From positions 840,001 through 872,000 of the forward strand of contig JAIZWK010000001.1 in assembly GCA_021498095.1 (NCBI GenBank): a stretch of DNA of 32,000 nt. The letters run 5' to 3'. The notes beneath the pieces are model-generated. The model worked only from the letters and a program-made list of their open reading frames with translations. It was not told where the DNA came from and searched no databases. This DNA comes from Candidatus Harpocratesius repetitus (GTDB lineage: Archaea; Asgardarchaeota; Lokiarchaeia; Sigyniarchaeales; Promethearchaeaceae). Positions 1-32,000 of the stretch are shown in pieces; within the stretch, counting starts at the first letter, position 1, and the number at the start of each line of letters is the position of its first letter. A program made the translations under genes and the position numbers.

Positions 1-2
1 TT

Positions 3-2801: not shown

Positions 2802-2928
2802 TATAGATGATCAAAAAAGTCCATTTTTTCACACTTTCTTAAATCAAATGCGATAAAGTGTTCATCTAACCGATGTTCATCTATCATCTATTAACACTAA
2901 TTGGATACAACGCTGTAAAATAAAAAGA

Positions 2929-3156
2929 TTAAAAAGAGTGAGGGTCAAAAAGGGGTATTACTCTTGTTTTTTTCAAGTACCATGTATCTATCTCCAATTC
3001 CCTTTCTTGGTTAAGTGCCTGGTTAATTTGAGAGTGAATACATTGGAAAGGGATAATTATTTTTTTATTAAATTGAGGAAATTCTACCACAGCACGATGT
3101 TTTTGAATGTCTCTTATTATTCCAGATAATTTTGTATGATCATTTCCATAGGGCAT
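2929..3156 (-). CDS. small hypothetical protein (~75 aa, probably beta-rich)
   Basis: Fills the gap between the convergent ATPase and the divergent aminopeptidase. ATG at 3156 (track start 3159 is TTG). Protein-like composition; no family recognised. Confidence 0.55.
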   Translation of the reverse strand: MPYGNDHTKLSGIIRDIQKHRAVVEFPQFNKKIIIPFQCIHSQINQALNQERELEIDTWYLKKTRVIPLFDPHSF

Positions 3157-3524
3157 CAATTTTCATTTCACTCTCCAAAACAGCAAAATTTTGAATATAT
3201 TTCTTAATTTTTGCATAAATATGTTAAGATATGTGGATCTGTTAAGTTTTGTTTGTTCTATTTTTTACTTAAATTTCCCTATTAGGGGAACATTAAATAA
3301 AGTTATCTTGTAAACAATATATCTAATAACAATAGATACTACTATACTCTTAGAATTTTACCTCATTTAAACATTTCTTGCATCATTCTGTCGATTGACA
3401 AAATTCGACATAATCATGCGCTTTTAGAATTAATTCCAGTAATTCTTAATTGAAGGAATTAACAGTAGAGAAGATTTTAATATTAACAGATGCTTATCCA
3501 ATTACTTTAGTTATTTCTTTTGAG

Positions 3525-13505: not shown

Positions 13506-14228
13506 ATGTTTAGCACACCTGGACTTGGATACGATAGAGCCATAACGATCTTTTCCCCTGACGGACGTTTATTTCAGGTGGAATATGCTATTGAAGCAGT
13601 AAGACGTGGAACAACTGCCATTGCTGTAAAAAATGAAACTGGAGTTGTTTTTGCTGTTGAACGACGTAATCTCCCATTACAAGAACATCTTGGAAGTGAA
13701 AAACTCTTTAAAATCGATGATCATGTCGGTGTGGCTATCTCTGGGTTAACTGCTGATGCCAGGACTTTAATTGATCAAGCACGCGTTCATGCACAGGTCA
13801 ATATTCTAAGTTATGATGAAGAAGTTTCCGTTCTTGAAACAACTCGTGATCTGTGTGATCAATGTCAATTATATACGCAAAATGCAGGAGTGCGCCCTTT
13901 TGGAGTATCATTATTAATTGGTGGTGTGGATGATGATAAAACGGTGAACCTATATCTAACTGATCCATCAGGTGCATTCTGGGGATATAAAGCTTGTGCA
14001 ATTGGAAGTGGTTCAGCTCAAGCCCGAGAGTTTTTAGGAAAAGAATATAAAGAAACTATGGATTTTGAAGAGTTAAAACTTCTTACAATTCGCACATTAA
14101 AAGAAGTTATCGAGGGTGATTTAGATGCTGAACGATTTGAAATTGCTGTTATCAATGCAGAAGATAGACAATGGAAATTGTTTTCTATTGAAGAAAATAA
14201 AAAACTTCTGAAAAAATTAAACGAATAA
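13506..14228 (+). CDS. psmA: proteasome subunit alpha
   Basis: GYDRAITIFSPDGRLFQVEYA signature, RPFGVSLLIGG, DPSG, AIGSG. Confidence 0.98.
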   Translation: MFSTPGLGYDRAITIFSPDGRLFQVEYAIEAVRRGTTAIAVKNETGVVFAVERRNLPLQEHLGSEKLFKIDDHVGVAISGLTADARTLIDQARVHAQVNILSYDEEVSVLETTRDLCDQCQLYTQNAGVRPFGVSLLIGGVDDDKTVNLYLTDPSGAFWGYKACAIGSGSAQAREFLGKEYKETMDFEELKLLTIRTLKEVIEGDLDAERFEIAVINAEDRQWKLFSIEENKKLLKKLNE

Positions 14229-14438
14229 GACCTTTTCTGTTTATGAAATAAACAAAATTTTTTTACTCGATTTCATTGTAATTCTTAAATAACATATAAT
14301 ATATATCTTATTAGAAACGGTAAGAAACGATATTGTCCCAAATTATAATATTTCATTTAATAATTGCCGAAGATTTAAAAAATCTATGTAAATTTGGGCG
14401 ATATATTAGGATATAAGGAAAAATTGGAGAAAGGCAGG

Positions 14439-15230
14439 ATGTCTCACTCAAGGGGAGGGCCGAAAGGGAATTTCGATTTGGGAAAATATATTATTGTGAA
14501 AATTGAAAAAGCTAATCACAATTTTGAGATGATCGTTGATCCTGAAGAAGCCTGGAAAGCTAAACAAATACTCAAAGAAATGCGGCAAAAAGAGCAAAAT
14601 CATGAAATAACAGTTGATGATGTTTTATCTACATCTGAAATTGATTTAGAAAGCATTTTTCCCACATATGATTTCTTTCTTAATGTCAAAAAAGGTGATC
14701 GAGTCACCGAATCAGATTTAGAAAATGCATTTGGAACCACAGAAGAACGAAGAATTGCTGCTGATTTTTTATTAGAAGGTGACTTTGCTTGGACTAAAGC
14801 ACAACGTGAAAAATGGTTAGAAAAGAAAAGGAAACAAATAATTAATATCTTAGCTAGAAATTCCATTAACCCTCAAACAAAACATCCTCATCCCCCAAAA
14901 CGTATTGAAAAAGCACTAGAAGAAGCTCGTGTGTCGATTGACATAAATAAATCGGCAGAAGAACAAATAGATGATATAGTAAAACGAATTCAAGCTGTAA
15001 TACCTATCCGTATTGAAGCAATTCAAATGGCAATTAAGATTCCTGCGGAATATGCTGCTAAAGCTTACAACACGGTAGAGCAATATGCTCAAATAAAGCA
15101 ATCAGAATGGCAGACGGATGGTTCTTGGATTGGTATGATATCTTTACCTGCAGGTCTTCAAATGGAAATGCTTGATAAATTGAATAAATTAACTCATGGT
15201 AGAATGCAAAGTAAATTGATTCAAAAATAA
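14439..15230 (+). CDS. ribosome maturation factor SBDS/Sdo1
   Basis: FE.IVDP, KGD..TESDL..AFGT, INPQTKHPHPPKRIEKAL, QSEWQTDGSW; conserved position after psmA. ATG 14439 preferred over TTG 14394. Confidence 0.95.
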   Translation: MSHSRGGPKGNFDLGKYIIVKIEKANHNFEMIVDPEEAWKAKQILKEMRQKEQNHEITVDDVLSTSEIDLESIFPTYDFFLNVKKGDRVTESDLENAFGTTEERRIAADFLLEGDFAWTKAQREKWLEKKRKQIINILARNSINPQTKHPHPPKRIEKALEEARVSIDINKSAEEQIDDIVKRIQAVIPIRIEAIQMAIKIPAEYAAKAYNTVEQYAQIKQSEWQTDGSWIGMISLPAGLQMEMLDKLNKLTHGRMQSKLIQK

Positions 15231-15413
15231 ATTGACTTAATGCTATATGTTAAGCTATATTAAGCAAATTGACTTAACTTATAGGTAGTCTTCTTCAAAC
15301 AAATAAAAACAATGGGGATTTTTGAGAAGAGATCAAAACCTCTTTTCCTCTTTTCTTCCGTTCAAAATAAGAAAATTGTAACTTGTAAAAGTTGTAAAAA
15401 AAAAGTGAAAAAA

Positions 15414-16160
15414 ATGTCCGCGGAGAATAAACCAATACGAGAAATCGTTACTCCAGGTCAAGTTATTGCCACCGATCCTGGGTTAATTGCAGGAAGAGGG
15501 GCAATAAAGGAAGATAATGGTCAAATTACGTCTGTCTTTGTTGGATTAAAGGAAATCCGAGGAAAATATGTTAATGTTGTGCCATTAAATGGGCTTTATA
15601 ATCCTCAAATTGGAGATAAAGTAATAGGGCGAGTAATTGCAAAAACACCAGTAAAATTTCTGCTTGACATTAATGCAAAATTTTTAGGAATTTTGAAACC
15701 ATCTGATGCATTTAAAAGACCACATCAGAATCGGGGCTATCCAAAATCAATGGGTACATATAGATTGCCTCGAGAAAATGATATGGATAAGTTAAAAATG
15801 GGAGATCAAATTATTTGTAAAATTTTATCCGGATCACGAACTGAAGAACCAGCACTTACCAGCTTGGGTCAAGAGCTTGGACTAATCACAGAAGGGTTAG
15901 TTATTGCAATATCTCCCACAAAAATTCCCCGAGTGATTGGAAAAAAGGGAAGTATGATCGCCTTATTAAAGAATTTATTACATTGTAAAATTTTTGTGGC
16001 TCAAAATGGGCGTATTTGGATTCATGGACGAAATCCTGAAAATGAACGATTATTAATTGAAGTGATATATAAAATTGAGCGTGAAGCTCATACAACTGGA
16101 TTAACTGATAGAGTTAAAGCATATATTTTAAAAGAAAAGAAAATTCGAGGTATCAAATAA
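15414..16160 (+). CDS. rrp4: exosome cap subunit Rrp4 (S1 + KH)
   Basis: IVTPGQ, YNPQIGDKVIG (S1), KIPRVIGKKGSMI and AQNGRIWI (KH), EAHTTGLTDRV. ATG 15414 preferred. Confidence 0.95.
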   Translation: MSAENKPIREIVTPGQVIATDPGLIAGRGAIKEDNGQITSVFVGLKEIRGKYVNVVPLNGLYNPQIGDKVIGRVIAKTPVKFLLDINAKFLGILKPSDAFKRPHQNRGYPKSMGTYRLPRENDMDKLKMGDQIICKILSGSRTEEPALTSLGQELGLITEGLVIAISPTKIPRVIGKKGSMIALLKNLLHCKIFVAQNGRIWIHGRNPENERLLIEVIYKIEREAHTTGLTDRVKAYILKEKKIRGIK

Positions 16161-16162
16161 AA

Positions 16163-17308
16163 ATGCCAATCTTAGTACCAGAACCTCATGATGAAATATG
16201 TTTCCGTGAAGATGGAAAGCGATTAGATGGTCGAGCAGTGGACGAACTTCGTCCCTTTTCGTGTGAAGTAGGTGTAATTAAAAATGCTCAAGGGTCTGCT
16301 CTCGTAAGACACGGAGGTAATTTGATTTATGCAGCTATTTACGGCCCTCGAGAGGTGCATCCCCGTCATTTAGCCCGTCCCGATAAGGGAATTTTAAGAG
16401 TGTATTATCGAATGGCGACATTTTCCGTTCATGAACGAAAAAGTCCCGCACCAAATCGTCGTGAAAATGAAATTTCCAAAGTTATTCGGGAAGCTTTGGA
16501 ACCTGTATTGTTTTTGGAAGCTTATCCCGATTCCCAAATTGAAATATATATTGAAGTTATTGCTGCAGATGGGGGAACCCGGTGTGCAAGCACTACAGCT
16601 GCATCGTTAGCATTAGCTGATGCAGGAATTCCTATGAAAAGTATGGTTGTGGGTGTAGCAGCTGGAAAAGCACAGGGTCGTGTTTTACTTGATTTAGGTG
16701 ATAAAGAAGATAAAGTCGGTCAAGCAGACATTCCTTGTGTTGTAGTAATGAAAGATAAATCAATATCACTTCTGCAATTTGATGGTGAAATGTCTTTAGA
16801 AGAAATGAAAACTGGATTTGAATATGTATTAAAGGGTGCAGAAATCATTTATCAAAAGCAATTGGAAGCTTTGCGTGAAAAATATAATAAAATAACAAGA
16901 GAAGCTGAAATTGAGGACTCTGCAGTAGGAAATTTACCACAAAATGAGCAAAAGTCTATAAATGAATCCCAAAATGCTCAAGATAGTCTTCAAAATACTT
17001 CCCAAATTGATGAACAAATGAAGGTTCAAAATGAAAAACAAGAAATTAATAATGATCATAAAGCTGAACCATCTCCTTTAATGGAAAATTCATCTGCAAT
17101 TAATGAATCTCAAAAAGAAGTTGAGAAAGGGGAAGTCGAAGAAAAATCAAAGGATGAAAAATCAAGCGAAGAAAACATAATTAAATCCAGCGAACAATCC
17201 GCTAATTCCACTGATGATTCACCAAAACAAGGAGAAAACCAGTCTTCACAAGAAGAACAACAATTAAATACAGAAAATGATTCACCTTCAGGAGATGATC
17301 AAGAATGA
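16163..17308 (+). CDS. rrp41: exosome core subunit Rrp41 with ~140-aa acidic C-terminal extension
   Basis: RLDGRAVDELRP, GSALV, YGPRE, NRRENEISKVI, ADGGTRCAS and EDKVGQAD active-site motifs. Stop overlaps the rrp42 start (ATGA). Confidence 0.96.
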   Translation: MPILVPEPHDEICFREDGKRLDGRAVDELRPFSCEVGVIKNAQGSALVRHGGNLIYAAIYGPREVHPRHLARPDKGILRVYYRMATFSVHERKSPAPNRRENEISKVIREALEPVLFLEAYPDSQIEIYIEVIAADGGTRCASTTAASLALADAGIPMKSMVVGVAAGKAQGRVLLDLGDKEDKVGQADIPCVVVMKDKSISLLQFDGEMSLEEMKTGFEYVLKGAEIIYQKQLEALREKYNKITREAEIEDSAVGNLPQNEQKSINESQNAQDSLQNTSQIDEQMKVQNEKQEINNDHKAEPSPLMENSSAINESQKEVEKGEVEEKSKDEKSSEENIIKSSEQSANSTDDSPKQGENQSSQEEQQLNTENDSPSGDDQE

Positions 17309-18132
17309 TGGATATTAATGAAGTTGTGAGTAATTTAGAGAAAAACTATATCTTAAAACTTTTAAAACAAGGGAAAAGAATTGATGGTCGTGGGTTATTT
17401 GAATATCGCGATGTTAAAATCAAAACTGGGTTTATTCCGAAAGCTGAAGGTTCAGCAGATGTATTTTTAGGCGATACACGTGTTATGTGCGGAGTAAAAT
17501 ATGATATAGGTACTCCATTTTCAGATAATCCTGATAAAGGTGTTTGTACCGTTATGTCTGAATATTTACCGATTGCTTCTCCAATGTTTGAACCAGGACG
17601 ACCAGATGAAGTTGCAATTCAATTAGCCCGAGTAGTAGATAGAGGAATTCGTCATACTAATTGTATTGATTATAAAAAACTATGCATCAAAGAGGGCGAA
17701 TATGTTTATATTCTTTTCGTTGATTGTTATATGATGGATTATTTTGGGAATTTAACTGATGCTTCTGCGATTGCGGCGATAGCTGCCTTATTAAATACTA
17801 ATTTACCTGGGGCTAAATTAAACGAAGAAGGAGTTCCTGAATGGGATGGAACATATTCACCTTTAACCATTTATGAGATTCCACTTAGTATAAGTTTTGG
17901 TAAAGTTGGAAATGTTATTTTTGTGGATCCTAATTTATCTGAAGAAATGGTGCTCGATGGATCTATTGCTTTTGCAGTTGATGAGAAGAAACAGGTTACT
18001 TCCATCCAAAAATACGGAAATGCTACTTGGAGTGTTGAAGAAATCTTAGATACTTCGAAAAAAGCAATTGAAATTGCTGATGAATTACGAGCAAAATTGA
18101 ATTTACGCCAACACGTTCCTCAGCCTAAATAA
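17305..18132 (+). CDS. rrp42: exosome core subunit Rrp42
   Basis: RIDGRGLFEYR, KAEGSA.V.LGDT.V..GVK, PFSDNPDKG, LARVVDRGIR, DP.L.EE...DG. Confidence 0.96.
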   Translation: MMDINEVVSNLEKNYILKLLKQGKRIDGRGLFEYRDVKIKTGFIPKAEGSADVFLGDTRVMCGVKYDIGTPFSDNPDKGVCTVMSEYLPIASPMFEPGRPDEVAIQLARVVDRGIRHTNCIDYKKLCIKEGEYVYILFVDCYMMDYFGNLTDASAIAAIAALLNTNLPGAKLNEEGVPEWDGTYSPLTIYEIPLSISFGKVGNVIFVDPNLSEEMVLDGSIAFAVDEKKQVTSIQKYGNATWSVEEILDTSKKAIEIADELRAKLNLRQHVPQPK

Positions 18133-19701: not shown

Positions 19702-21177
19702 TCAGATATTTTGATTTAAAATTGTTCTTAACTGATTTAAAGTGAAGGGTTTTCGCAGAACCCCTAAAAATCCGAATTTCTTTGGATTAGCCATTATTGG
19801 ATCATTTGAATAACCACTTGCTACTATCGCTCGAATTTTTGGATCATACTCTTTTAATTCTGCAATAACTTCCTTTCCACCTAATCCACCTGGAATTGTT
19901 AGATCCAATATAACTAATCCAAAAGGTGAATTATTTTTATAAGCTTCCTTATAAATTCTTATAGTATCTTCTCCTTTTTCGGTAAAAACTGCGTCATAAT
20001 TCAAATGATGTATTAATTTTTCCATAATTCTTTGAATAGAATGATCATCTTCTAGAATAAGAATAGAATTTGATATTTTTTCTTCATTATTTGCTTTTTT
20101 CTTCTGAGAAGTGCTATTTTCTGAATATATTTCAATTGAATCTTGAGCAGGTAAATATATACAAAATTCTGTGTAATGATTATTTTTATCAGTTGATGTA
20201 TTAAAACATATAAAACCTTGATGGAATTTTACAATCGAATAAACAGTTGCTAAACCTAAGCCTGAACCCATCTTTTTTGTTGTGAAATAAGGATCAAAAA
20301 TTTTTGAATGATATTTCTCTGGGATACCCGTTCCAGAGTCCCGTATTTTAATTTCGATATATCGACCTGGGGGAATGAGTATTCGATGAAAATATCCCAT
20401 CTTTTTGTAAACTGGAGTTTTTATTTCGACATTATGAAAATGAAGAAAAATTTCTCCCCCATTAGGCATTGATTGATCCGCATTAATTATTAAATTCGAT
20501 ATTACTTGAGATATTTGATTTGCATCTACTACAGATAACCATAGTTTATGATCAAAATCTAAAGTACATTTTGATCTAGATCCCCGTAATGCAAAAATTG
20601 CAGTTTCTGTAATTACTTTTGTTAAATCCGTTGGTTTTTTTACCGGAGCACCTCCTGTAGCAAATGTAAGGAGTTGTGTAGTTAAATTTTGTGCCCGCAT
20701 GATGGATTTTTCAGCATCTTTCAAAGTTTCTCTTATAAAATTTAAATCGTCTTCTTCTAATGCAAGAGTTATATTTCCTAATAACGCTGCAAGAATATTA
20801 TTAAAATCGTGTGCAATTCCTCCAGCTAAAGTTCCAATACTTTCTAATTTTTCCTGATTAAGTTGATATTCTGTTAATTCAGTGGGTGTCTTATTATCTT
20901 CAAGAAATAAAATCATTTCTTTTGAATCTGTTTTCTCTGAGAGAAGATCTATATTTACAATATAGGGGAACTTTTGCCCGTGTTTAGTAATAATTTCCAT
21001 TTCATATTTTCCAGAAAATGTTTTATTCTGTTGAAATGATTCAAAAATATTCTTTCCAAGAGATTGATAATCAGGAGCTATAAAATTTAAAATAGATTTA
21101 CCAATAATTTCATCCAAAGTCATCTTAAAGACATTTAGACCTGCTGAATTTACTTGTAATATCTTTAATGAATTCAA
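19702..21177 (-). CDS. hybrid sensor kinase PAS-HisKA-HATPase-REC
   Basis: GGIAHDFNNIL H-box, NLIINADQSM N-box, DSGTGI and DPYFTTK.MGSGLGL G-boxes, REC with EDD, LDLTIPG, SGY and KPF. The true start is probably upstream (frame open to 21261). Confidence 0.93.
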   Translation of the reverse strand: MNSLKILQVNSAGLNVFKMTLDEIIGKSILNFIAPDYQSLGKNIFESFQQNKTFSGKYEMEIITKHGQKFPYIVNIDLLSEKTDSKEMILFLEDNKTPTELTEYQLNQEKLESIGTLAGGIAHDFNNILAALLGNITLALEEDDLNFIRETLKDAEKSIMRAQNLTTQLLTFATGGAPVKKPTDLTKVITETAIFALRGSRSKCTLDFDHKLWLSVVDANQISQVISNLIINADQSMPNGGEIFLHFHNVEIKTPVYKKMGYFHRILIPPGRYIEIKIRDSGTGIPEKYHSKIFDPYFTTKKMGSGLGLATVYSIVKFHQGFICFNTSTDKNNHYTEFCIYLPAQDSIEIYSENSTSQKKKANNEEKISNSILILEDDHSIQRIMEKLIHHLNYDAVFTEKGEDTIRIYKEAYKNNSPFGLVILDLTIPGGLGGKEVIAELKEYDPKIRAIVASGYSNDPIMANPKKFGFLGVLRKPFTLNQLRTILNQNI

Positions 21178-21446: not shown

Positions 21447-22226
21447 TTATCCATATGAAATTATCCTAAAAGAATCTTCGATTTTTAAAAAATAATTCAT
21501 ATTTTTGGAATTTAGCACTAATTCGCCCTCATCATTAATTCCATTAATAATACATTTTTTACCATTATTTAAGGTAATTTGGTTTCCTATATATAATAGA
21601 TGTTGATTATATTGTGATATTAGTAATGTTTTTTTATTTTTTGGAAAATTTACAATATATGATTCCCAAATTTCATGATATAAGTTCTTTAACAAGATTC
21701 GAGCAAAATTAACAATAGGAACTTTTGTATGAGTCAAATCAAAAACTGAGACTACATTTTCTTTTAAGTAATCTGGAAAATTTGTTGTCGAATTGTTTAA
21801 ATTTATACCAATTCCAATTAGAAGAAAATTGAAATTTACTTGAGAGATTAATTCTAGTAAAATTCCACCCATTTTCTTAAATCGATAAGAATTGGATGAA
21901 AAGGTAATAACTAAATCATTTGGCCATTTAATAACAGCAGGTATATTTAGGTATGTGTTTAGGAAAGATTGTAGAAGTTGAACGATTCCATAATGGAGAA
22001 AAACAAATTGTTCATTAGATAAAAGTTTTGGTAAGGGTATTCCAAGAGTGCTCCAAAATCCTCCAATTGGAGAGATCCAATCATCATTCTTTCGTCCTCT
22101 TCCGTGTTTTTGGGTTTTTGCAATCAAAAAAATACTTTGATTTGAGTTTTGGTGAATATATGGAATGATTGCATCTTGAGTTGATGAAACTTCATCAATA
22201 TAAATTATCTTTACAGAAGGTATCAC
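21447..22226 (-). CDS. birA: biotin--protein ligase, class I (no N-terminal HTH)
   Basis: SSTQD, Q.HGRGRK...W.SP.GG, IKWPNDL, KMGGILLE, IGIGINL motifs; GTG start. Confidence 0.93.
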   Translation of the reverse strand: MIPSVKIIYIDEVSSTQDAIIPYIHQNSNQSIFLIAKTQKHGRGRKNDDWISPIGGFWSTLGIPLPKLLSNEQFVFLHYGIVQLLQSFLNTYLNIPAVIKWPNDLVITFSSNSYRFKKMGGILLELISQVNFNFLLIGIGINLNNSTTNFPDYLKENVVSVFDLTHTKVPIVNFARILLKNLYHEIWESYIVNFPKNKKTLLISQYNQHLLYIGNQITLNNGKKCIINGINDEGELVLNSKNMNYFLKIEDSFRIISYG

Positions 22227-22231
22227 GATAT

Positions 22232-22294
22232 AAAAAAAAAAAAGTGCTTGTTAAATTTTCTTACCATCATCCTACTCGGAAAGGTAGGTGGTAA
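22232..22294 (-). promoter_or_regulatory. hairpin followed by a T12 run in the birA leader
   Basis: On the + strand, TTACCA-tcat-CCTAC-N8-GTAGG-TGGTAA (22261-22294). The A12 run at 22232-22243 is T12 on the birA strand, ending 5 nt before the GTG. Confidence 0.4.
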
Positions 22295-22401
22295 CTTTAT
22301 ATGTAAAATTAAATTCTTCATCTCCATTATATTCTTATTTTTCAACTTTTACGAGAAAAGAGAAAAAATACTAATCCAATGGGGATAACTCGAATTTTCT
22401 T

Positions 22402-22409
22402 TTTATATA
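22402..22409 (+). promoter_or_regulatory. candidate TATA box of the carboxyltransferase gene
   Basis: TTTATATA ends 24 nt before ATG 22434, the usual archaeal spacing for a near-leaderless transcript. Confidence 0.45.
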
Positions 22410-22433
22410 AAATAACATTTATTCAATTCAATA

Positions 22434-24008
22434 ATGATTTTAGAAAAAATTGAAGGTAGCCAATCACCTTCACCTTCTTCATCTGATCTTATTGGGCTCC
22501 GACGTAAGTCTAAAGAAGGTGGAGGGCCATTAAAAATCGAATCTCAACACCGGAAAGGAAAAATGACTGCTCGGGAGCGAATTGATTTATTAATTGATCC
22601 TGGAACCTTCACAGAAATCGATGAGTTTATACTTCATCGCTCCACTAAATTTGGGATGGAACATCAAAAATACTATGGTGATGGTGTTGTCACGGGATTT
22701 GGTTTCATCAATGGGAGAAAAGTATTCTTATATAGTCAAGATTTTACTGTTATGGGCGGAAGTTTAGGGAATGCACACGCTAAGAAAATTTGTAAAATTA
22801 TGGATCTTGCAATTAAAAATGGTTGTCCTATAATTGCTCTTCTTGATTCTGGGGGTGCCAGAATTCAAGAGGGTGTAGATTCTTTAGCTGGATTTGGCGA
22901 AATCTTCCATCGAAATGTTCAAGCTTCAGGTGTCATTCCTCAAATATCCGTTATTTTAGGTTCATGTGCAGGAGGTGCGGTCTATAGTCCTGCACTTACA
23001 GATTTCGTCATCATGGGTGGGGATCATGCATATATGTTCGTTACTGGGCCTCAAGTTGTCGAATCTGTGACAGGAGAACAAGTTTCTTTTAATGATCTTG
23101 GGGGGAAGGATATTCATGCGAATATTTCGGGTGTTGCACATCTGGTCGCTAATTCTGAAGAACAAACCTTGGATCTGGTAAAAAAATTACTATCTTACAT
23201 CCCTTCCAATAATTTAATGGATGCACCACGAGGAAATACTGAATTAGAGCCAGATCAAACCATAAATCTTGATACAATAATTCCAGAAAATGAAAATGAA
23301 CCTTATGATATGAAATTTGTAATTAAAGGAATTATTGATAAAGGCTCTTTCTTTGAAATTTTTCCTTCTTTTGCTAAAAATATCATCACAGGATTTGGAC
23401 GTTTACAAGGGAATACAATTGGAATAATTGCTAATCAACCAATGGTTTTGGGAGGCGCAATAGACTTTCATGCTTCTGATAAAAGTGCCAGATTCATCCG
23501 ATTTTGTGATTCGTTTAATATTCCTATTTTGACATTAGTTGATGTTCCTGGTTTCATGCCTGGAACTAAACAAGAATATGCTGGTATAATCCGGCATGGA
23601 GCTAAGATGATATTTGCATATTCTGAAGCAACAGTTCCAAAAATCACGATTATTACTAGAAAAGCATATGGGGGTGCATATATCGTTATGGCTTCAAAGC
23701 ATTTGGGCGCAGATATTAATTTAGCGTGGAATTCTGCCCAAATTGCCGTTATGGGTGCTGAAGGTGCATGTAAAATTCTTTATCGAAAAAAAATTCAAAA
23801 ATCTGACGATCCAGAGAAAGAATTAGAAAGATATATTGCACAATATAAACGAGAGTTTTCAAATCCATTTCAAGTTGCTGAATTGGGCTATGTTGATAAA
23901 GTCATTTTTCCTTCAGAATCCCGTTCAATTATTTTAAATTCGCTGCAATTTCTTATAAATAAGCGTGAAAATGTCCCAAAAAGAAAGCATGGTAATTTTC
24001 CTGTCTGA
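22434..24008 (+). CDS. acyl-CoA carboxylase carboxyltransferase subunit (PccB/AccD type)
   Basis: GKMTARERID.L.DPG.F.E, DGVVTGFG, QDFTVMGGSLG, DSGGARIQEG, GSCAGGAVYSPALTD, DVPGFMPG, RKAYGGAY, KHGNFP. Confidence 0.97.
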   Translation: MILEKIEGSQSPSPSSSDLIGLRRKSKEGGGPLKIESQHRKGKMTARERIDLLIDPGTFTEIDEFILHRSTKFGMEHQKYYGDGVVTGFGFINGRKVFLYSQDFTVMGGSLGNAHAKKICKIMDLAIKNGCPIIALLDSGGARIQEGVDSLAGFGEIFHRNVQASGVIPQISVILGSCAGGAVYSPALTDFVIMGGDHAYMFVTGPQVVESVTGEQVSFNDLGGKDIHANISGVAHLVANSEEQTLDLVKKLLSYIPSNNLMDAPRGNTELEPDQTINLDTIIPENENEPYDMKFVIKGIIDKGSFFEIFPSFAKNIITGFGRLQGNTIGIIANQPMVLGGAIDFHASDKSARFIRFCDSFNIPILTLVDVPGFMPGTKQEYAGIIRHGAKMIFAYSEATVPKITIITRKAYGGAYIVMASKHLGADINLAWNSAQIAVMGAEGACKILYRKKIQKSDDPEKELERYIAQYKREFSNPFQVAELGYVDKVIFPSESRSIILNSLQFLINKRENVPKRKHGNFPV

Positions 24009-24086
24009 TGATAAAAAAATCTTTTTTCTACTATACTAATATTTCAAAAATTAAACTCAAAACTTAAAACTGAAGAGGTTGTAAAG

Positions 24087-26180
24087 ATGAAAAAACCACA
24101 TGAAATACTTAAAATTTTAAACAACACATTGCCGATCTGGGGATATAATCCTCAAGGTTTTGAAGATATAACTGTTCTTGTAACCCTCTGCGAAAATAAT
24201 GCTGTAGGTATATTAAATACTGAATCTCTTTCTATTTTACAGACTAATAAAATAATTAAACGAATATCAAAACAAATACAACCTTCAAAAATATGGGGAA
24301 TTCGCATTACTAATGAAGATTTCATCTCTGATTTAGATTTTAGCACAAATAATGTGATTGCAATTTGTTCGTTTGTTCCATCAAGTAAAAGTCTTGAAAT
24401 TTTAAAAAAGAAATCACTGCTTATCTGTGCAGAAGTGTTGACTTCACAAGAAGCAAAATCTAAAGCAAAATGGGCCGATTTTTTCTTAGTTCGCGGAAAT
24501 GAAGCCGGTGGTTTTGTTAGTAATCGAAATTCTTTCATTCAAATTCAAGAATTCTACAAATTGGGATATAGCTTTATCATTGAAGGTGGATTTGGCATAT
24601 ACAATGTTGGTGCGGCCTTAATTGGTGGTGCTCTTGGTGTAGTTTATGAATCACAATTGTATTTATTAAATGAATCTCCATTAAGTCATCAATTTAAATC
24701 TTATATTAAAACCCTGCAAGAAAATGATTTCTACTTGTTTGCTGAAAGTGAACATTTTAACTTTCGTTTGATTGGAAAATTGGCCAATAAATCTATTCGA
24801 GAAGTTAAATTGAAAGAAAAAGACTTTTATAAGCAAATTCTTGAAAAAGAAGGAGATATTACCCGAGAAGAGTTCACAAAAATTTTATTTAGTGTTATTC
24901 AAAAAGATCGGGGAAAACAAATTGGATTTCCGGATTTTTCATCAAAATACCCTAAACATTCATTTCTTCCTTGTGATCATGGTATCATTTTTGCAAATCA
25001 GATTGCTGAGCAATTTCAGTCCATTTCAAGATTTATTCAAAAAATAACTGAAATTATTATTCGACAACATAAATTAATTAAAAAACAGTGGCCTTTTCAA
25101 GAATCTAGCCCATTTGCTCAGAATATAAATGTCAAATATCCTATCATCCAAGGTCCAATGGCAAATATTACTGAATCGATTGAATTTGCCCAAATTGTTG
25201 CAGATCACGGAGCATTACCGACATTTGCTTTAGGGGGTTTGATGGGACCTGAAGCAGATGCATTATTGGAAAAAATCTCAAATTCATCTTTACAAAACTA
25301 CCAATATATGGCTGGAATTATTGGATTAGAAGTTGTTAAAAAACGTCGTGAACTTCAATTAGAATCTATAAAAAAACACAATGTTCCCTTTACATTAATT
25401 GCAGCAGGTTCAGTTGATTTAGCCAAACAAGTAATTAGACAAGGTGAAAGAGTTTTTTTACATACTCCTGCTCTATCTATGTTTAAAGAAGCCGTGAAAA
25501 ACCAAATTGAATTTTTAATTTTAGAAGGGAGTGAATGTGGAGGTCATATTGGAACCCTTTCATCTTGGATATTGTGGGAAAACATACTTCAATACTGTAA
25601 AAAAGAACAACAATCATTTTCTCAAAAAATTAACGTTATTTTCGCAGGAGGTATTATTAATGAAACCAGCAGTGCGATGTTGGCGATGATGATTGGTGAT
25701 CATCTCGATATAATCAATCCTGGAATTCAGATGGGAACATCCTATCTTTTCACTCCAGAAATTACATCTTCAAAGGCATTATCTCCCCTTTATCAGAATC
25801 TATTGTTGAATCATGACTCAACTCGTGTCATAGGCGCAACTGTAAATACACGAGCACGTGTAATTCCATCGATATTTAGTTCAGAAACAATCAAAAAAGA
25901 ACTTCATCGAATAACAGAAGAAATTCCAATTTCAAAGCGTAAAGAACTTTATGAAAAGGATAATTTGGGTGCTTTGCGAATTGCTGCACAAGCAGAAATC
26001 TGGAATAATGATCATATTCCAGGAACAGGGACTACTCAATTTATTCCAATATCTCCAGAAAAACAAGAAAAACTAGGTGCATTCATGACTGGCGAGTCAC
26101 TAACTCTTCGTACGACAGTCGTCCCTATAAAAAATTTACACTACGATATTACCAAAGGAGGATTTCATAAAGTTTCAAAT
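24087..26180 (+). other. domains: tandem FabK/nitronate-monooxygenase-like (PfaD-type) enoyl-reductase barrels
   Basis: Barrel 1 has RGNEAGGF, IIEGGFG and GALGV. Barrel 2 has YPIIQGPM, LEGSECGGH, IFAGGI and GIQMGTSY. Boundaries are approximate. Confidence 0.8.
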
Positions 26181-29100
26181 CTTCAAAAATATAATTCATT
26201 GAATCAAATTCTTAATTTTAAGAATCAATTAAAATCCAAGCCTGTTTTTGAAAAAACAAAAAAAAAATTCGCCGATTCTCGGGTTGCAATAGTAGGAATT
26301 GGTGGAGTATTTCCTGATGCTTCAAATATTAATGAATTCTGGGATAATATTTTATCAGAGAAATATTCTATTACTGAGGTTCCTAAAGATCGATGGAATT
26401 ATGAAATATATTTCAGTGAAGATCGAAATCAAAAAGATAAAACTTACACTAAAATTGGGGGTTTTATCAAGGACTTTAAATTCAAATCAATTAAATTTCG
26501 AATCCCCCCACAAATGGCTAAGAGAATGGATCCTGTCCAGAAATGGGCTTTAACTGCAGCTAAAGAGGCGTTAATGGATGCAAATTATCCTATTGATGGA
26601 AAACAATCTCTATCATTGGCTGTTATTATCGGAAACTCTTTAGGGGGGGAAATTCAAAGATATAATGATAAAAGGGTCTTCTTCAACGAAATTAATCACT
26701 ATCTATATCAAGCAGAAAAGAAAAATATCGGAGATTCAAACTCTATTCGGAGAATTAAATCTTATCTTGAAGAAAATATAATCAAAAATATTCTTCCTAT
26801 TAATGAAGATACAATGCCTGGTGAATTATCAAATATAATTGCTGGCAGAATTAGTAATGTCTTCAATTTAAACGGAAAGAATTTAACTACTGATGCAGCA
26901 TGTGCTTCAAGTCTTGCAGCTTTAGATACAGCGGTAAAGGGTCTTCTATTAGGAGATTACGACGCAGTTTTAGCCGGTGGGGCTGATCATTCAATGGATC
27001 CATCTGTTTTTATAAAATTCTCAAAGATTGGGGCGCTTTCCGCAAAAAAGTCTTGTCCATTTGATGCAGAAGCAGATGGTTTTGTTATGGGAGAAGGAGC
27101 AGGTTTTGTTGTACTTAAACGATTATCTGATGCAATTCGCGATAATAATAAAATTTATGCGGTAATTAGGGGAATAGGTGCTTCTTCAGATGGTAGAGGT
27201 AAAGGAATTACTGCACCTAACCTACAAGGTCAAAAAATGGCTGTCATACGAGCGCTAGACTCCGCTAAAATTCAAGAAAAAGATCTTCAATATATTGAAT
27301 GTCATGGTACTTCCACTGTAATAGGAGATGCTACTGAATTAATGGTGCTTCAAGAATTACTCCACTCTAAAAATCCATCTCAGAAAATTGCAATTGGTTC
27401 TGTTAAAAGTCAAATTGGGCACTTAAAAAGTGCAGCTGCTATCGCTTCAATTATCAAAACGAGTCTGGCACTTTATCATAAAATTATCCCTCCTTCTATA
27501 AATTTTAATATTCCAAATCCCAAAATTGACTGGGATAATGTTCCTTTTTATGTAAATACTCACGCTAAAGAATGGATTCGTCCTCAAAATTCCATAAGGA
27601 GAGCAGGTGTTTCAGCTTTTGGATTTGGTGGGACCAATTTTCATGTCATATTAGAAGAGTTTTGTCCCGAATCTTTAAACAATTCTATAAATTCTATTCC
27701 AGAATATATTCCATATTCTGAGGGAATCATTCAAACGAATCAAAAAAGTGCATTTTCATTTGATAATTCTGATCCTTCTTTAGTATTTATGTTTAGTGGT
27801 CAAGGAAGTCAATATGTCGGGATGGGTCATGAATTATATGAGACAATTCCAGAAATACGAGATATCTTAAATCGTGCTAATGAAATTTGTCAGAGTTTTG
27901 GAGATTTTAACCTTCTTCAAATTTTATTTGGTGATAAATCGAAATCAAAAAGTGAAAATCAAAAAATATTAACTCAAACACAGTTCACTCAACCAGCGAT
28001 TTTTAGCTTGGAAATTGCCTTATTCAAATATTTAAATAACCGTGGGATTGTCCCAGGAATTGTTGCCGGTCATAGTTTGGGAGAATTCTCTGCCCTTGTT
28101 ACTGCAGGAGTGATGGATTTTGAAGATGCATTAAAAGCTGTCATTATTCGAGGTCAAGCAATGGGTACATCCACTCCTGATTCTAAATGTGGAATGGCTG
28201 CCCTATTGTGTCCAATTTCTCAGGTAGAAGAAATTCTAAAAAAAGTTAAAGAGGGAAATGTTTCGATTTCTAATTATAATTCTCCTACACAGACTGTTAT
28301 TTCAGGTGATTTGGTAGGTATTCAAAATGCCTTAAAAGTATGTCAAAAAGAAAATGTTAGAGCAAAACAATTAAATGTGTCACAAGCGTTTCATTCAAAA
28401 TTTGTGGCATCTGCTGGTTCTAAATTAGCGGAGTATTTAAATACCATCAAATTTCATAAACCAAATATTCCAGTATACAGCAATGTCTTAGGCAGTGCAT
28501 ACCCGACTAATTCTGATAAAATAAAGGGGATTTTATTAGATCAAATTACCTCACCTGTACGTTGGACTGACGAGATAGAGCAGATTTATAATGCGGGAGG
28601 AAGAAAATTTGTAGAAGTTGGACCTAAAAAAGCCTTATTCTACTTTGCTAAAGAAATTTTGAAAAAAGCAAAAAATGTTTCTCAATTCTTTACTTTAACT
28701 CCAAAAAAATCTGAAGTAGAATATCTAAAACAAATAACAGACGAAATTAGTAATCAAATGCAAAATAGAGAGCAAAATTTTTCCTTAAAATCCAAATATC
28801 TCTTTTCTAAACAGAATTTACCGAAGATACTTAGCCAAAATAAAGAAATATCAAATAATAATGTGTTTGATGAATTAATTTCTGATAAAACTATCCAAAG
28901 TCTTAGTACACAACCTCATTTTAGAGAATTTCTTGCTCAACAAAAAGAAATACTCGCCCCCATGTTAAAAGCATCCTATTCTCAATTTATTCGCTTGTAT
29001 AGACAAGAACAAGAACGAAAAAAGAAAGAATCGTCACAATTTATCCAAAATACACTACAAATTGGAGTAACCGGTGTTGGATTGGGAATTCCAGGAAAAA

Positions 29101-32000
29101 ATCGAAATGTATTCGATGATTCTAACATTATTGCAATTTTAAATGGGGAAAATTTTATTGAACCTCTTCCTGAAGAAGTTAAAAAAGGAATATTAGATAA
29201 AAATATTGTTCGATTAAATAAAACTTCTAATGGAGATGCCTCTTTTATAGAAATAAAGGATATTTCTCAAGTTATTCATCTTGCTGGGCAAATTGGTGCA
29301 TTTGATCCCAAAAAAGATTTTCTTCTGGATGATAAACTGCTGAATGCTCTGGATATCACTTCAAAATTAGCAATTGGCGCCGGATTGGAAGCTTTGAAAG
29401 ATGCTGGAATTCCTTTAGTAAAATCAAAGATTACTACAACAACAGGTAAGATAATTTCTGGAGATTGGGCATTACCAGAAGAACTACAAAGAGATACCGG
29501 TGTTATTTTTGCCTCTGCATTTCCTGGATTGGACAATTTGGTAAAGGATCTTACCACTCACTTAACACAACAGTTAAAATTAGAAACATTTGAGAAATTT
29601 AATCAAAAGTTTTCCAAATTTCTAAATGAAATTTCTCATTCCAAAATTAAAAAAGAGTTAGAAGAATGGTATTATGAAAATAAAGCCTTAATTTTTGGTG
29701 ATAAGAAAGATCTTATACATTTTAACCGTGCATTTCTCTTTCGAATCTTATCCATGGGTCATTCCCAATTTGCACAAATTATCAAAGCTAAAGGGCCAAA
29801 TACACAAGTAAATGCTGCATGTGCATCTACTACTAATGCTTTCGCAATTGCTGAAGACTGGATTAGAACTGGGCGCTGTAATCGAGTAATTGTGATTTCT
29901 GGAGATTGTCCAACTACAAAAAGTCTCTTTCCATGGCTTGGAGCAGGATTTGTTGCAAGTGGAGCTGGAACAATCAAACAAAACTTAACAGATGCAGTTT
30001 TACCCTTTGGAATTGGTCGAAATGGCCTTATTGCTGGAGCGGGTGCGTCTGCATTTGTTCTAGAAACTCAATCTGAATCAAATAGACGTGGGATTAAGCC
30101 AATCGTTGATTTATTAGGAACACAAATAAGCAATAGTGCATATCATGGATCTCGTCTTGATAAACTAGACATTACGGAAGAATTCAATCGTTTTATTACA
30201 ACAATGGTTAATCAACACAAAATCACAAAATCTGAAATTGCTCGTAAAGGTATGTTTGTCAGTCATGAAACTTACACACCGGCTCGAGGTGGAAGTTCTG
30301 AATCAGAATTGGAAGCATTATCTAATACTTTCGGACCAGATGTGAGTAAATTACTCATTATCAACACCAAAGGATTTACTGGTCATCTTATGGGAGTTGG
30401 TATGGAAGAAGCTGTTGCGATAAAATCAATTGAGTACGGGATTATTCCTCCAATTGCAAATTTTGGTAAAATAGATCCAAAATATAGCAAGTTTTACTTC
30501 TCAACTGGGATTAAAGAACGAAAAGATTATGCAATTCGGTTTGCTGCAGGTTTTGGATCCCAAATTGCAATTTTAATGTTCCGAAAAAATACACCCACTA
30601 ATAGAAAGGATGAAAAAGTGTATCATGCTTGGCTTCAATCTGTTGCAGGTTCAACTTCTCTCTTTTTAGATGGCCGAGTTTTAAAAGTAGACTCAAAACA
30701 GCAAATTTCATTCTCACAAAAGCAATCAATTCCATCTATTTTACAAACATCAAAATCAAATGAAACAATTTTAGCCACCTTGATTCAAATTATTGCTGAA
30801 AAAACAGGTTATGATATCTCAGATCTTGAACCACAGTACCATTTAGAAGAAGATTTAGGGATTGATACGATTAAACAAGCAGAGATTTTCGGAGAAATTG
30901 GAGAGAAATGGAATATTGAGGAAAATCAGTCTTGGAATATTAGTGAAATGCAAAGTATTGCGGATATAGCCAAAGTATTATCGCGAATGGTGAATGACTC
31001 ATCTCAGATTTCATCCCAGACTTCAAGTAATAATCATATTAATCAAAATAATTGGGAAGAAAAAGTCCGGGCAATTATTTCGGAAATTACAGGTTATGAT
31101 CATGAAGATATTCAATTGGATTTTGATTTAGAAGAAGATCTGGGGATTGATACCATAAAACAAGCAGAGATTTTTGGTAGAATTAGAGAAGAATGGCAAA
31201 TTCCTGAAGAGACTAGTATCAATCTTACAGAATTTCGTAGTATTAATGATATTCTTGCCTTTTTATCTAAAAATTTCTCTGGTTCCAGCTCTCAAACTAA
31301 AAATACCATTGATCTAAGTACATCAGAAACAAATATTGACCAACCAACTCAAATCAAAGAAGAGGAGATCAAGAAAATTATATCTGAAGTGACTGGTTAT
31401 GATCTTGAAGATATTCAATCTGATTTTGATTTAGAAGAAGATCTGGGGATTGATACCATAAAACAAGCCGAAATTTTTGGGCGCATTAGAGAAGAATGGC
31501 AAATCTCTGAAGATACTCAAATAAATCTAGCTGATTTTCGAACGATTCAAGATATTTTAACTCTTTTGAATTCAACTAAAAAAGTAAATAATTCAATAGA
31601 TAATAGTGTTGCAACTGTCGATAATTCTCAGATCTCTAAAAGTAATGATAAAAATAGAAGTGAATCCAATATAGATCAAGTTAAATCAATTATTGCAGAA
31701 ATTACAGGTTATGATTCAGAAGATTTGGAACTAGATTTTGATTTAGAGGAAGATCTGGGGATTGATACCATAAAACAAGCGGAAATATTTGGTCAGATTC
31801 GTGAGAAATGGCAAATTTCAGATGAATCTTTGATTAATATCGCTGAATTTCGGACAATAAGAGATATTTTAAATTACATCACAAAAATTAATGAAAGAAA
31901 TCTAAGTTCCCAAGAAATTCCCCAAATTGCGAAATCATCAAATGAAAATAGAACAGTAAACGAAATTATAGAATCACGAATAAAATCGATAATATCAAGA
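24087..32000 (+). CDS. giant type I FAS/PKS-like synthase: pseudoER-ER-KS-AT-KS-ACPn (3'-partial, at least 2638 aa; not in the ORF track)
   Basis: GAGGT at 24075-24079, ATG 24087. Hand translation stays open to the window end, and every motif falls in the same frame: YPIIQGPM (25137), ECGGH (25533), DAACASS (26892), HGT (27303), GH (27417), GQGSQ (27798), GHSLG (28068), NAACAST (29811), four GIDTIKQ. Confidence 0.95.
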   Translation, partial: MKKPHEILKILNNTLPIWGYNPQGFEDITVLVTLCENNAVGILNTESLSILQTNKIIKRISKQIQPSKIWGIRITNEDFISDLDFSTNNVIAICSFVPSSKSLEILKKKSLLICAEVLTSQEAKSKAKWADFFLVRGNEAGGFVSNRNSFIQIQEFYKLGYSFIIEGGFGIYNVGAALIGGALGVVYESQLYLLNESPLSHQFKSYIKTLQENDFYLFAESEHFNFRLIGKLANKSIREVKLKEKDFYKQILEKEGDITREEFTKILFSVIQKDRGKQIGFPDFSSKYPKHSFLPCDHGIIFANQIAEQFQSISRFIQKITEIIIRQHKLIKKQWPFQESSPFAQNINVKYPIIQGPMANITESIEFAQIVADHGALPTFALGGLMGPEADALLEKISNSSLQNYQYMAGIIGLEVVKKRRELQLESIKKHNVPFTLIAAGSVDLAKQVIRQGERVFLHTPALSMFKEAVKNQIEFLILEGSECGGHIGTLSSWILWENILQYCKKEQQSFSQKINVIFAGGIINETSSAMLAMMIGDHLDIINPGIQMGTSYLFTPEITSSKALSPLYQNLLLNHDSTRVIGATVNTRARVIPSIFSSETIKKELHRITEEIPISKRKELYEKDNLGALRIAAQAEIWNNDHIPGTGTTQFIPISPEKQEKLGAFMTGESLTLRTTVVPIKNLHYDITKGGFHKVSNLQKYNSLNQILNFKNQLKSKPVFEKTKKKFADSRVAIVGIGGVFPDASNINEFWDNILSEKYSITEVPKDRWNYEIYFSEDRNQKDKTYTKIGGFIKDFKFKSIKFRIPPQMAKRMDPVQKWALTAAKEALMDANYPIDGKQSLSLAVIIGNSLGGEIQRYNDKRVFFNEINHYLYQAEKKNIGDSNSIRRIKSYLEENIIKNILPINEDTMPGELSNIIAGRISNVFNLNGKNLTTDAACASSLAALDTAVKGLLLGDYDAVLAGGADHSMDPSVFIKFSKIGALSAKKSCPFDAEADGFVMGEGAGFVVLKRLSDAIRDNNKIYAVIRGIGASSDGRGKGITAPNLQGQKMAVIRALDSAKIQEKDLQYIECHGTSTVIGDATELMVLQELLHSKNPSQKIAIGSVKSQIGHLKSAAAIASIIKTSLALYHKIIPPSINFNIPNPKIDWDNVPFYVNTHAKEWIRPQNSIRRAGVSAFGFGGTNFHVILEEFCPESLNNSINSIPEYIPYSEGIIQTNQKSAFSFDNSDPSLVFMFSGQGSQYVGMGHELYETIPEIRDILNRANEICQSFGDFNLLQILFGDKSKSKSENQKILTQTQFTQPAIFSLEIALFKYLNNRGIVPGIVAGHSLGEFSALVTAGVMDFEDALKAVIIRGQAMGTSTPDSKCGMAALLCPISQVEEILKKVKEGNVSISNYNSPTQTVISGDLVGIQNALKVCQKENVRAKQLNVSQAFHSKFVASAGSKLAEYLNTIKFHKPNIPVYSNVLGSAYPTNSDKIKGILLDQITSPVRWTDEIEQIYNAGGRKFVEVGPKKALFYFAKEILKKAKNVSQFFTLTPKKSEVEYLKQITDEISNQMQNREQNFSLKSKYLFSKQNLPKILSQNKEISNNNVFDELISDKTIQSLSTQPHFREFLAQQKEILAPMLKASYSQFIRLYRQEQERKKKESSQFIQNTLQIGVTGVGLGIPGKNRNVFDDSNIIAILNGENFIEPLPEEVKKGILDKNIVRLNKTSNGDASFIEIKDISQVIHLAGQIGAFDPKKDFLLDDKLLNALDITSKLAIGAGLEALKDAGIPLVKSKITTTTGKIISGDWALPEELQRDTGVIFASAFPGLDNLVKDLTTHLTQQLKLETFEKFNQKFSKFLNEISHSKIKKELEEWYYENKALIFGDKKDLIHFNRAFLFRILSMGHSQFAQIIKAKGPNTQVNAACASTTNAFAIAEDWIRTGRCNRVIVISGDCPTTKSLFPWLGAGFVASGAGTIKQNLTDAVLPFGIGRNGLIAGAGASAFVLETQSESNRRGIKPIVDLLGTQISNSAYHGSRLDKLDITEEFNRFITTMVNQHKITKSEIARKGMFVSHETYTPARGGSSESELEALSNTFGPDVSKLLIINTKGFTGHLMGVGMEEAVAIKSIEYGIIPPIANFGKIDPKYSKFYFSTGIKERKDYAIRFAAGFGSQIAILMFRKNTPTNRKDEKVYHAWLQSVAGSTSLFLDGRVLKVDSKQQISFSQKQSIPSILQTSKSNETILATLIQIIAEKTGYDISDLEPQYHLEEDLGIDTIKQAEIFGEIGEKWNIEENQSWNISEMQSIADIAKVLSRMVNDSSQISSQTSSNNHINQNNWEEKVRAIISEITGYDHEDIQLDFDLEEDLGIDTIKQAEIFGRIREEWQIPEETSINLTEFRSINDILAFLSKNFSGSSSQTKNTIDLSTSETNIDQPTQIKEEEIKKIISEVTGYDLEDIQSDFDLEEDLGIDTIKQAEIFGRIREEWQISEDTQINLADFRTIQDILTLLNSTKKVNNSIDNSVATVDNSQISKSNDKNRSESNIDQVKSIIAEITGYDSEDLELDFDLEEDLGIDTIKQAEIFGQIREKWQISDESLINIAEFRTIRDILNYITKINERNLSSQEIPQIAKSSNENRTVNEIIESRIKSIISR
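26280..27660 (+). other. domain: ketosynthase 1 (type I / Pfa-like), Cys-His-His intact
   Basis: RVAIVGIGGVFPDA start, MDPVQ, DAAC (Cys 26901), ECHGT (His 27303), KSQIGHLK (His 27420), SAFGFGGTNFH. Confidence 0.95.
27783..28680 (+). other. domain: acyltransferase (malonyl-CoA:ACP transacylase-like)
   Basis: FMFSGQGSQY, TQPAIF, GHSLGE (Ser 28074), Arg in IRG, SQAFHS, PVRW, FVEVGP. Confidence 0.93.
29058..30587 (+). other. domain: ketosynthase 2 (FabF-like), Cys-His-His intact
   Basis: IGVTGVG start, EALKDAG, NAAC (Cys 29820), SHET (His 30264), TKGFTGHLMG (His 30384), AAGFGS. Confidence 0.88.
30762..32000 (+). repeat. tandem ACP domains: 4 complete plus the probable start of a fifth, all with GIDT
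   Basis: TGY...LEEDLGIDTIKQAEIFG with the Thr codon at 30867, 31152, 31455 and 31767 (spacing 95, 101 and 104 aa). IKSIISR at the window end resembles helix 1 of another copy. Confidence 0.92.

Follow-up and report, generated by a model that had tools for sequence, protein, structure and literature searches.

Does an archaeon that encodes a carrier-protein-dependent megasynthase also encode a private supply of extender units for it? Archaea have been stated to lack fatty acid synthases (FAS) of types I and II, acyl carrier protein (ACP) and ACP synthase (bioRxiv 10.1101/2024.07.05.601840; also reviews). The question is raised by the end of a 32,000-nucleotide stretch of the genome of the Asgard archaeon Candidatus Harpocratesius repetitus (assembly GCA_021498095.1, contig JAIZWK010000001.1), hereafter the window (G000:C1:840001-872000), which is part of a single 4.36-Mb contig of 31% GC. 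Here, genes for a biotin-protein ligase (birA), the carboxyltransferase (CT) subunit of an acyl-CoA carboxylase, and a multidomain synthase lie side by side, and the original prediction held that this cluster makes malonyl-CoA for the synthase. The linkage of biotin carboxylase (BC) and biotin carboxyl carrier protein (BCCP) genes, the synteny and co-occurrence of the genes among genomes, an isoleucine at the specificity site of the CT, and the absence of any other visible partner in the genome all support that proposal. We consider it likely that a Loki-type Asgard archaeon here encodes a self-sufficient, ACP-dependent system for building acyl chains, and that the region is its upstream half.

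The gene arrangement was described correctly at the outset: birA is divergent from a PccB-type CT gene, whose stop codon lies exactly 78 nt before the synthase ATG (Table 1). It was also correct that no BC or BCCP gene lies inside the window, and it had been proposed that these genes might be elsewhere in the genome or that the enzyme might work as a transcarboxylase. We located both genes downstream of the synthase in the same cluster, 5.5-7.6 kb past the window end (window-equivalent 37484-39631), and the BCCP has the expected EAMKM motif. Since BC and BCCP belong to the cluster, neither of those two alternatives is needed and we rejected both. The whole set, comprising BirA, CT, synthase, an alpha/beta hydrolase, BCCP and BC, occupies about 18 kb and includes all parts of a multi-subunit acyl-CoA carboxylase (a CT, an ATP-grasp BC, a BCCP with EAMKM, and a biotin-protein ligase). 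BirA scores 113 bits against the birA_ligase model TIGR00121 (cut-off 83) and has the motifs GRGR (aa 42) and KWPND (aa 100), and its 259 aa include no helix-turn-helix domain; BC scores 598 bits against NF006367 (cut-off 597). The synthase stop codon and the hydrolase start codon share one base (TAATG), and the remaining three genes (dehydrogenase-like, BCCP and BC) are convergent to the synthase and hydrolase. The dehydrogenase-like gene stands between hydrolase and BCCP in the window genome only and is absent there in the relatives G001 and G031, so it is not part of the conserved unit.

Table 1. Features of the cluster and its surroundings. Positions are those of the window unless marked as genome positions; aa, residues of the megasynthase.
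Feature	Position	Strand	aa	Details
Proteasome-alpha, SBDS, Rrp4, then two more open reading frames	13506-18132			resembles conserved archaeal exosome superoperon
birA, group I biotin-protein ligase	21447-22226	-		259 aa; GTG start; TIGR00121, PF03099
Divergent intergenic region birA/CT	22227-22433			207 nt, AT-rich; presumed promoter region
CT (beta) subunit of acyl-CoA carboxylase, PccB/AccD5 type	22434-24008	+		524 aa; PF01039
CT-synthase spacer	24009-24086	+		78 nt; T6 run, TATA-like tatactaatatt, GAGGT ahead of ATG
Megasynthase	24087 to genome 875474 (window-equivalent 35474)	+	1-3795	3,795 aa; aa 1-2638 inside window
TIM-barrel-like region	24087-25106	+	1-340	weak NMO-like match
Enoylreductase, FabK/PfaD-like	25104-26186	+	340-700	best solved relatives FabK
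Ketosynthase 1	26277-27719	+	731-1211	type I polyketide synthase-like; C/H/H
Acyltransferase	27783-28688	+	1233-1534	
Ketosynthase 2	29005-30596	+	~1640-2170	FabF-like; intact Cys/His/His triad
ACP repeats 1-4	from ~30780	+		ACP5 just beyond window end
First four of five tandem ACP repeats	30855-31772	+		each DLGIDTIKQAE; fifth just beyond window end
Ketoreductase	beyond window		~2680-3180	
Dehydratase, polyketide synthase type	beyond window		~3250-3560	HQIEGRPVLP (HxxxGxxxxP)
Phosphopantetheinyl transferase, Sfp type	beyond window		~3570-3795	WTAKEA (WxAKEA)
Alpha/beta hydrolase	genome 875474-876265	+		263 aa; Hydrolase_4, Peptidase_S9; GESFG nucleophile
Isopropylmalate/isocitrate/homoisocitrate-dehydrogenase-like gene	genome 876335-877429	-		LeuB model 329 bits, under cut-off
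BCCP	genome 877484-878038	-		184 aa; PF00364 58 bits; acetyl-CoA carboxylase BCCP models; EAMKM
BC	genome 878138-879631	-		497 aa; Biotin_carb_N, CPSase_L_D2, Biotin_carb_C

Pfam and NCBIfam matches give the megasynthase the domain order enoylreductase (ER), ketosynthase (KS), acyltransferase (AT), second KS, five ACPs, ketoreductase (KR), dehydratase (DH) and phosphopantetheinyl transferase (PPTase). All activities of a type I FAS (KS, malonyl/acyl transferase, KR, DH, ER and ACP) are present with their catalytic motifs, except for a threonine at the ACP attachment site, which we return to below. The order matches neither the animal FAS (KS-malonyl/acetyl transferase-DH-ER-KR-ACP-thioesterase) nor the fungal or Corynebacterium/Mycobacterium/Nocardia type. 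The AT had been described as having GHS.G and AFH rather than YASH, and we read the same: GQGSQ at aa 1238, GHSLG at aa 1328 (nt 28068-28082), SQAFHS at aa 1432 (nt 28380-28397), and the carboxylate-binding arginine within VIIRGQ at aa 1355, with YASH absent from the domain.

The CT aligns over the full length of PF01039 (Carboxyl_trans; 641 bits, profile positions 2-493 of 493), and its best solved relatives are PccB-type hexamers (E-values 1e-198 to 1e-203). Its Ile417 (nt 23682-23684, in GGAYIVM) aligns with the specificity position D422 of ScPccB and I420 of ScAccB; consistent with this alignment, the best-scoring PccB entry in the PDB is the D422I mutant. PMC7835884 (citing Diacovich et al., 2004) gives the rule for this position: with Asp the enzyme is propionyl-specific, and with Ile, as in AccB, acetyl-CoA is also accepted; the residue counts there as an important but not the sole determinant, and Ile-type enzymes as promiscuous for acetyl-, propionyl- and butyryl-CoA. 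A strictly propionyl-specific CT had been named as the finding that would speak against malonyl-CoA supply, and by this residue the window CT does not look like one. In a tree of 35 CT sequences, a branch with 100/96 support separates the 11 cluster-linked sequences, from six Asgard families, from non-cluster Asgard paralogues and bacterial sequences; the Loki-type families group together. Every cluster-linked CT has Ile at the specificity position, and the nine non-cluster Asgard sequences have Asp (six), Val (two) or Ile (one). Two sampled genomes of one family (f18) hold both kinds. Also ranking high among the CT homologues is an 839-aa protein labelled as from the chytrid Globomyces (P0126, 48% identity), which may be a fused eukaryotic form or contamination.

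To look for other partners, we searched all six-frame open reading frames (ORFs) of the genome by phmmer with each protein or domain as query, and found no second KS, AT, ACP, PPTase, CT, BC, BCCP or BirA. Family searches confined all PP-binding and ACPS matches to the synthase, and the sole KS match outside it was weak (26 bits) and probably comes from a thiolase-like gene. A pyruvate carboxylase or oxaloacetate decarboxylase was considered as the partner of BC and BCCP and rejected, as neither PYC_OADA nor OAD_beta (PF03977) has a match in the genome. Together with the single-copy status of the parts, this leaves the biotin enzymes without any other visible partner and the synthase without any other source of malonyl-CoA. 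For a host with no other KS, ACP or PPTase, a dedicated supply would be a necessity rather than a convenience. The genome also encodes a BioY biotin transporter (genome 2075381-2075800, minus strand), 1.2 Mb from the cluster, which among 41 relatives of the same order occurs only in the window genome and its congener G002.

The phylogenetic extent of the cluster was examined at two levels. Among the 41 relatives, family searches place the synthase, CT (Carboxyl_trans) and BC (Biotin_carb_C) in exactly the same four genomes, a pattern that is descriptive and not a statistical test, the four positives representing only two lineages. Besides the window genome, these are two congeneric genomes (61-67% synthase identity) and one genome of another family (54%). 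BirA occurs in three of the four and nowhere else among the 41, and the contig of the fourth begins inside the CT gene. The loci read birA(-)-CT-synthase in G002, CT-synthase-hydrolase-BCCP(-)-BC(-) in G001, and birA(-)-CT-synthase-hydrolase-BCCP(+)-BC(-) in G031, and a Heimdall-labelled genome has birA, hydrolase, BCCP, BC, CT and synthase together. Conserved synteny, which the original prediction had named as a check, thus extends down to relatives of 54% synthase identity and to a Heimdall-type genome. In the latter, the CT is split into two overlapping ORFs (L022:8306-9953; query aa 16-269 and 279-524), reflecting a frameshift or an assembly error.

Across an even sample of 301 genomes of the phylum, the synthase was found in 58, of which 57 also have a CT; the exception is a 69%-complete genome. 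Coordinate comparison showed the CT immediately preceding the synthase, with both on one strand, in at least 46 Asgard genomes of several families, and an adjacency conserved to this degree is more than chance. The synthase is nearly universal in three families (26/28, 10/11 and 11/11), patchy in the window's own order (2/6 and 5/69, or 7/75), and was not found in three large families (0/76, 0/19 and 0/21).

In the pathway that we propose, BirA would biotinylate BCCP, and BC, BCCP and the PccB-type CT would convert acetyl-CoA to malonyl-CoA. The AT of an iteratively acting megasynthase would load malonyl onto the five tandem carriers, primed by the synthase's own C-terminal PPTase, and the two KS domains, KR, DH and FabK-like ER would run full reductive cycles until the translationally coupled alpha/beta hydrolase released the chain. 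Both acetyl-CoA as the carboxylase substrate and the role of the hydrolase as the releasing thioesterase are inferred. The product would be a long, largely saturated acyl chain, perhaps hydroxylated or mono-unsaturated, because the ER is present and a FabA-type isomerising dehydratase and chain length factor (CLF) are absent. No PfaB, PfaC, CLF or FabA-type dehydratase pair was found anywhere in the genome, making cis-double-bond chemistry unlikely.

We looked for genes that might use such a chain. PlsC-type acyltransferases (PF01553) have three matches, in genome 534963-536459 (at 534963 and 536067) and at 1973078-1973440. The family is present in 41/41 relatives, with or without the cluster, and in 0/4 archaeal control genomes; it was therefore rejected as a cluster-specific user. 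These enzymes could still use the product, without being dependent on it. An alpha-oxoamine synthase resembling serine palmitoyltransferase (genome 1422996-1424288) was rejected as the downstream user as well, since its presence in 25/41 relatives does not track the synthase.

Several observations weigh against a dedicated malonyl-CoA-fed synthase. The genome encodes a methylmalonyl-CoA mutase. The carboxylase family as such also occurs outside the cluster, with 118 of the 301 Asgard genomes holding a CT without a synthase. The isoleucine of the CT is the mark of a promiscuous rather than strictly acetyl-specific enzyme, which could also carboxylate propionyl- and butyryl-CoA. The CT and synthase may be separate transcripts, because the spacer between them holds a T6 run and a TATA-like element. 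Finally, the synthase would be inactive if the threonine of its carriers cannot be phosphopantetheinylated.

This last point concerns an unusual feature of the whole family. All five ACP repeats (aa 2257-2662) read DLGIDTIKQAE, with Thr where the phosphopantetheine-bearing Ser is expected; when PigH, AcpM and the Bacillus subtilis ACP are aligned with them, the Thr falls exactly on the Ser that carries the modification in these proteins. The domains still score above the Pfam cut-off for PP-binding (PF00550), and none of the five has the Ser of the DSL/DSI attachment motif, all reading GIDTI. Almost all repeats in 120 homologues, archaeal and bacterial, have LG(I/V)DT(V/I), and Ser repeats occur only in P0023 and P0099. 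In Escherichia coli ACP, the substitution S36T blocks modification by AcpS. Conservation of the Thr throughout the family speaks for a working carrier, perhaps served by a co-evolved PPTase. A literature search, with subscription journals outside its coverage, found no paper on a Thr phosphopantetheine site, and its occurrence across a carrier-domain family would be of biochemical interest.

An alternative to a fatty-acid-like product is that the cluster is a sporadic secondary-metabolite polyketide synthase (PKS), whose product would be a signalling lipid or a scaffold resembling polyenes or enediynes. The first KS belongs to the type I PKS kind, and the order of KS, AT, ACP, KR, DH and PPTase recalls the enediyne PKS (PKSE), which likewise acts iteratively, is of type I, carries a cis PPTase at its C-terminus and leaves release to a separate hydrolase, a likeness that we compare by description only. 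PKSE, however, lacks both an ER and a second KS, contains just one ACP and yields conjugated polyenes, whereas the fused FabK-like ER of the Asgard enzyme gives a full reductive loop. The patchiness of the synthase in the window's own order and the retention of PlsC-type genes in relatives that lack the cluster would suit an accessory metabolite, but the near-universality in three other Asgard families fits core physiology better, and the conserved cluster contains no tailoring genes. We therefore regard a secondary-metabolite role as unlikely.

Alternatively, the carboxylase might supply methylmalonyl- or ethylmalonyl-CoA and the product be a methyl-branched, polyketide-like lipid rather than a straight chain. 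The promiscuity of Ile-type CTs would allow this, and the organism probably generates propionyl-CoA, given its mutase. The AT, however, has the AFH rather than the YASH motif and scores 242 bits against the FabD malonyltransferase model, albeit under the cut-off of 260.9, and we consider a branched product quite improbable.

It is highly improbable, in our estimate, that the carboxylase is a chance neighbour of the synthase, acting as a housekeeping propionyl-CoA carboxylase or as the decarboxylase or transcarboxylase of a methylmalonyl-CoA pathway. Such a role is hinted at by the top NCBIfam model for the CT (mmdA, TIGR01117, 754 bits), by the names of its best solved relatives (propionyl-CoA carboxylase beta), by the mutase gene, and by the many other Asgard families with a CT and no synthase. 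The mmdA score is nevertheless under the cut-off of 998.8, and the OAD_beta membrane subunit was not found in the genome. A tie to the mutase was rejected because the mutase occurs in 39/41 relatives and does not track the CT; as CT and BC are restricted to the four synthase-bearing genomes, the CT follows the synthase and not the methylmalonyl pathway. The cluster-linked clade is also separate from the other Asgard CTs, with Ile in place of the propionyl-type Asp, the f18 genomes keep both paralogues, and the adjacency to the synthase is widely retained.

The synthase architecture is also found in bacteria, in sequences labelled Desulfomonilaceae, Desulfobacterales, Bradymonadaceae, Chloroflexi, Elusimicrobia and one Mycobacterium, at 31-38% identity over the compared region. 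In a KS-AT tree, a single branch with 100/99 support splits the Asgard-labelled from the bacterial synthases; a few sequences that fall within the Asgard group are labelled Zixibacteria, Bathyarchaeia or Methanobacteriota and probably come from mislabelled bins. The tree leaves out three bacterial homologues of the Desulfobacterales type with a doubled KS (P0063 from L024, P0072 and P0075), in which a tandem KS pair precedes the AT, a further architectural variant of the family. We find it hardly credible that the cluster stems from bacterial contamination or was imported from bacteria very recently, and so is uninformative on archaeal biology: its domain families are typically bacterial or eukaryotic and homologues exist in Desulfobacterota, Chloroflexota and Elusimicrobiota, but it lies within a single archaeal contig near archaeal informational genes and has a GC content like its surroundings, the bacterial synthases are at most 38% identical and fall across the supported split, and the Loki-type families stay together in the CT tree.

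The chromosomal context of the cluster is confirmed as archaeal by the proteasome-alpha, SBDS and Rrp4 genes in the window, an operon 6 kb upstream of the cluster; the window also encodes DUF2110 and V4R proteins, and the genome has two archaeal small-subunit rRNA genes. The GC content of the cluster is no different from that of flanking DNA. Of the CTs in the protein collection, the closest, at 98% identity, bears the label Candidatus Harpocratesius sp., and the next ones are labelled Promethearchaeia or Promethearchaeota. At two bacterial loci that we inspected, no carboxylase or BirA gene lies beside the synthase, which fits a dedicated supply being required only where there is no housekeeping acetyl-CoA carboxylase (ACC). 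The simplest reading is that the bacteria use their housekeeping ACC and that the archaeal version travels with a private one in a host that otherwise has none.

Among known systems, the closest in domain order is the polyunsaturated fatty acid (PUFA) synthase subunit PfaA (Shewanella, Moritella and Schizochytrium), an iterative, malonyl-CoA-using synthase that shares KS-AT, tandem ACPs, KR and PKS-type DH. The window protein scores 814 bits against the PfaA model TIGR02813, under the cut-off of 1010.1, and differs in its cis-fused ER and PPTase, in a second KS with intact C/H/H between AT and ACPs, in having Thr rather than Ser carriers, and in the absence of the partner subunits PfaB and PfaC from the genome. 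A pairing of synthase and carboxylase is known from actinomycete clusters for polyketides or lipids, among them the accA3-pccB-pccE locus of Streptomyces toxytricini (PMC2886142), where a PccB-type CT likewise stands beside a synthase, boosting or providing extender units, and the same D422/I420 logic applies. In such actinomycete clusters, however, the carboxylase is an extra copy beside the housekeeping ACC, whereas here it is the cell's only carboxylase, comes with its own BirA and belongs to an archaeal host; no epsilon subunit was seen. The acetyl-/propionyl-CoA carboxylases of Sulfolobales and Thaumarchaeota (saci_0260-0262; bioRxiv 10.1101/2024.07.05.601840) consist of the same three subunits (BC, BCCP and PccB-type CT) but serve CO2 fixation or other metabolism and, unlike those of the Asgard cluster, are not linked to an ACP-dependent synthase. 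The same study proposes an ACP-independent fatty acid synthase complex in Sulfolobus acidocaldarius, which uses CoA thioesters, thiolase/DUF35 pairs and non-decarboxylative condensation, whereas the Asgard system would be ACP-, malonyl- and biotin-dependent.

A synthase cluster with its own acyl-CoA carboxylase is therefore already known from actinomycetes. What is new is that the host is an archaeon with no other ACC, KS, ACP or PPTase, that the synthase has the unusual architecture ER-KS-AT-KS-ACPn-KR-DH-PPTase, that the module as a whole is conserved between Asgard lineages, and that the carrier site is Thr. Our literature search, again with subscription journals outside its coverage, found no description of the Asgard synthase/carboxylase cluster. 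In surveys of biosynthetic gene clusters, PKSs of Asgardarchaeota receive no more than generic mention, and public records give the genes generic names such as "SDR family oxidoreductase" and "Pks15/1". A 2022 review leaves the function of Lokiarchaeal PlsC/PlsY homologues unexplained.

A bolder possibility, which we put forward tentatively and with considerable doubt, is that the megasynthase and its private carboxylase are the de novo ACP-dependent FAS of Asgard archaea, near-universal in several Heimdall-type families and patchy in Loki-type ones. It would feed PlsC/PlsY for acyl lipids like those of bacteria and eukaryotes, and its carriers would be charged on Thr by a co-evolved cis PPTase, which, if true, would be a new form of phosphopantetheine modification. 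The cluster, which lies on a closed Asgard chromosome, in any case offers a concrete and testable candidate for where fatty acyl chains come from in the archaea most closely related to eukaryotes, and this bears directly on the "lipid divide" problem of eukaryogenesis.

Three other genes of the window deserve mention. Adjoining birA is a hybrid histidine kinase with PAS, HisKA, HATPase and receiver domains (19702-21177, minus strand), which is outside the conserved cluster in the relatives inspected. A 718-aa ORF at 7115-9271 (minus strand) matches no Pfam family at E <= 0.001. The gene at 3450-6029 encodes an M1 aminopeptidase whose C-terminal domain is ERAP1-like, a combination known best from eukaryotic aminopeptidases.

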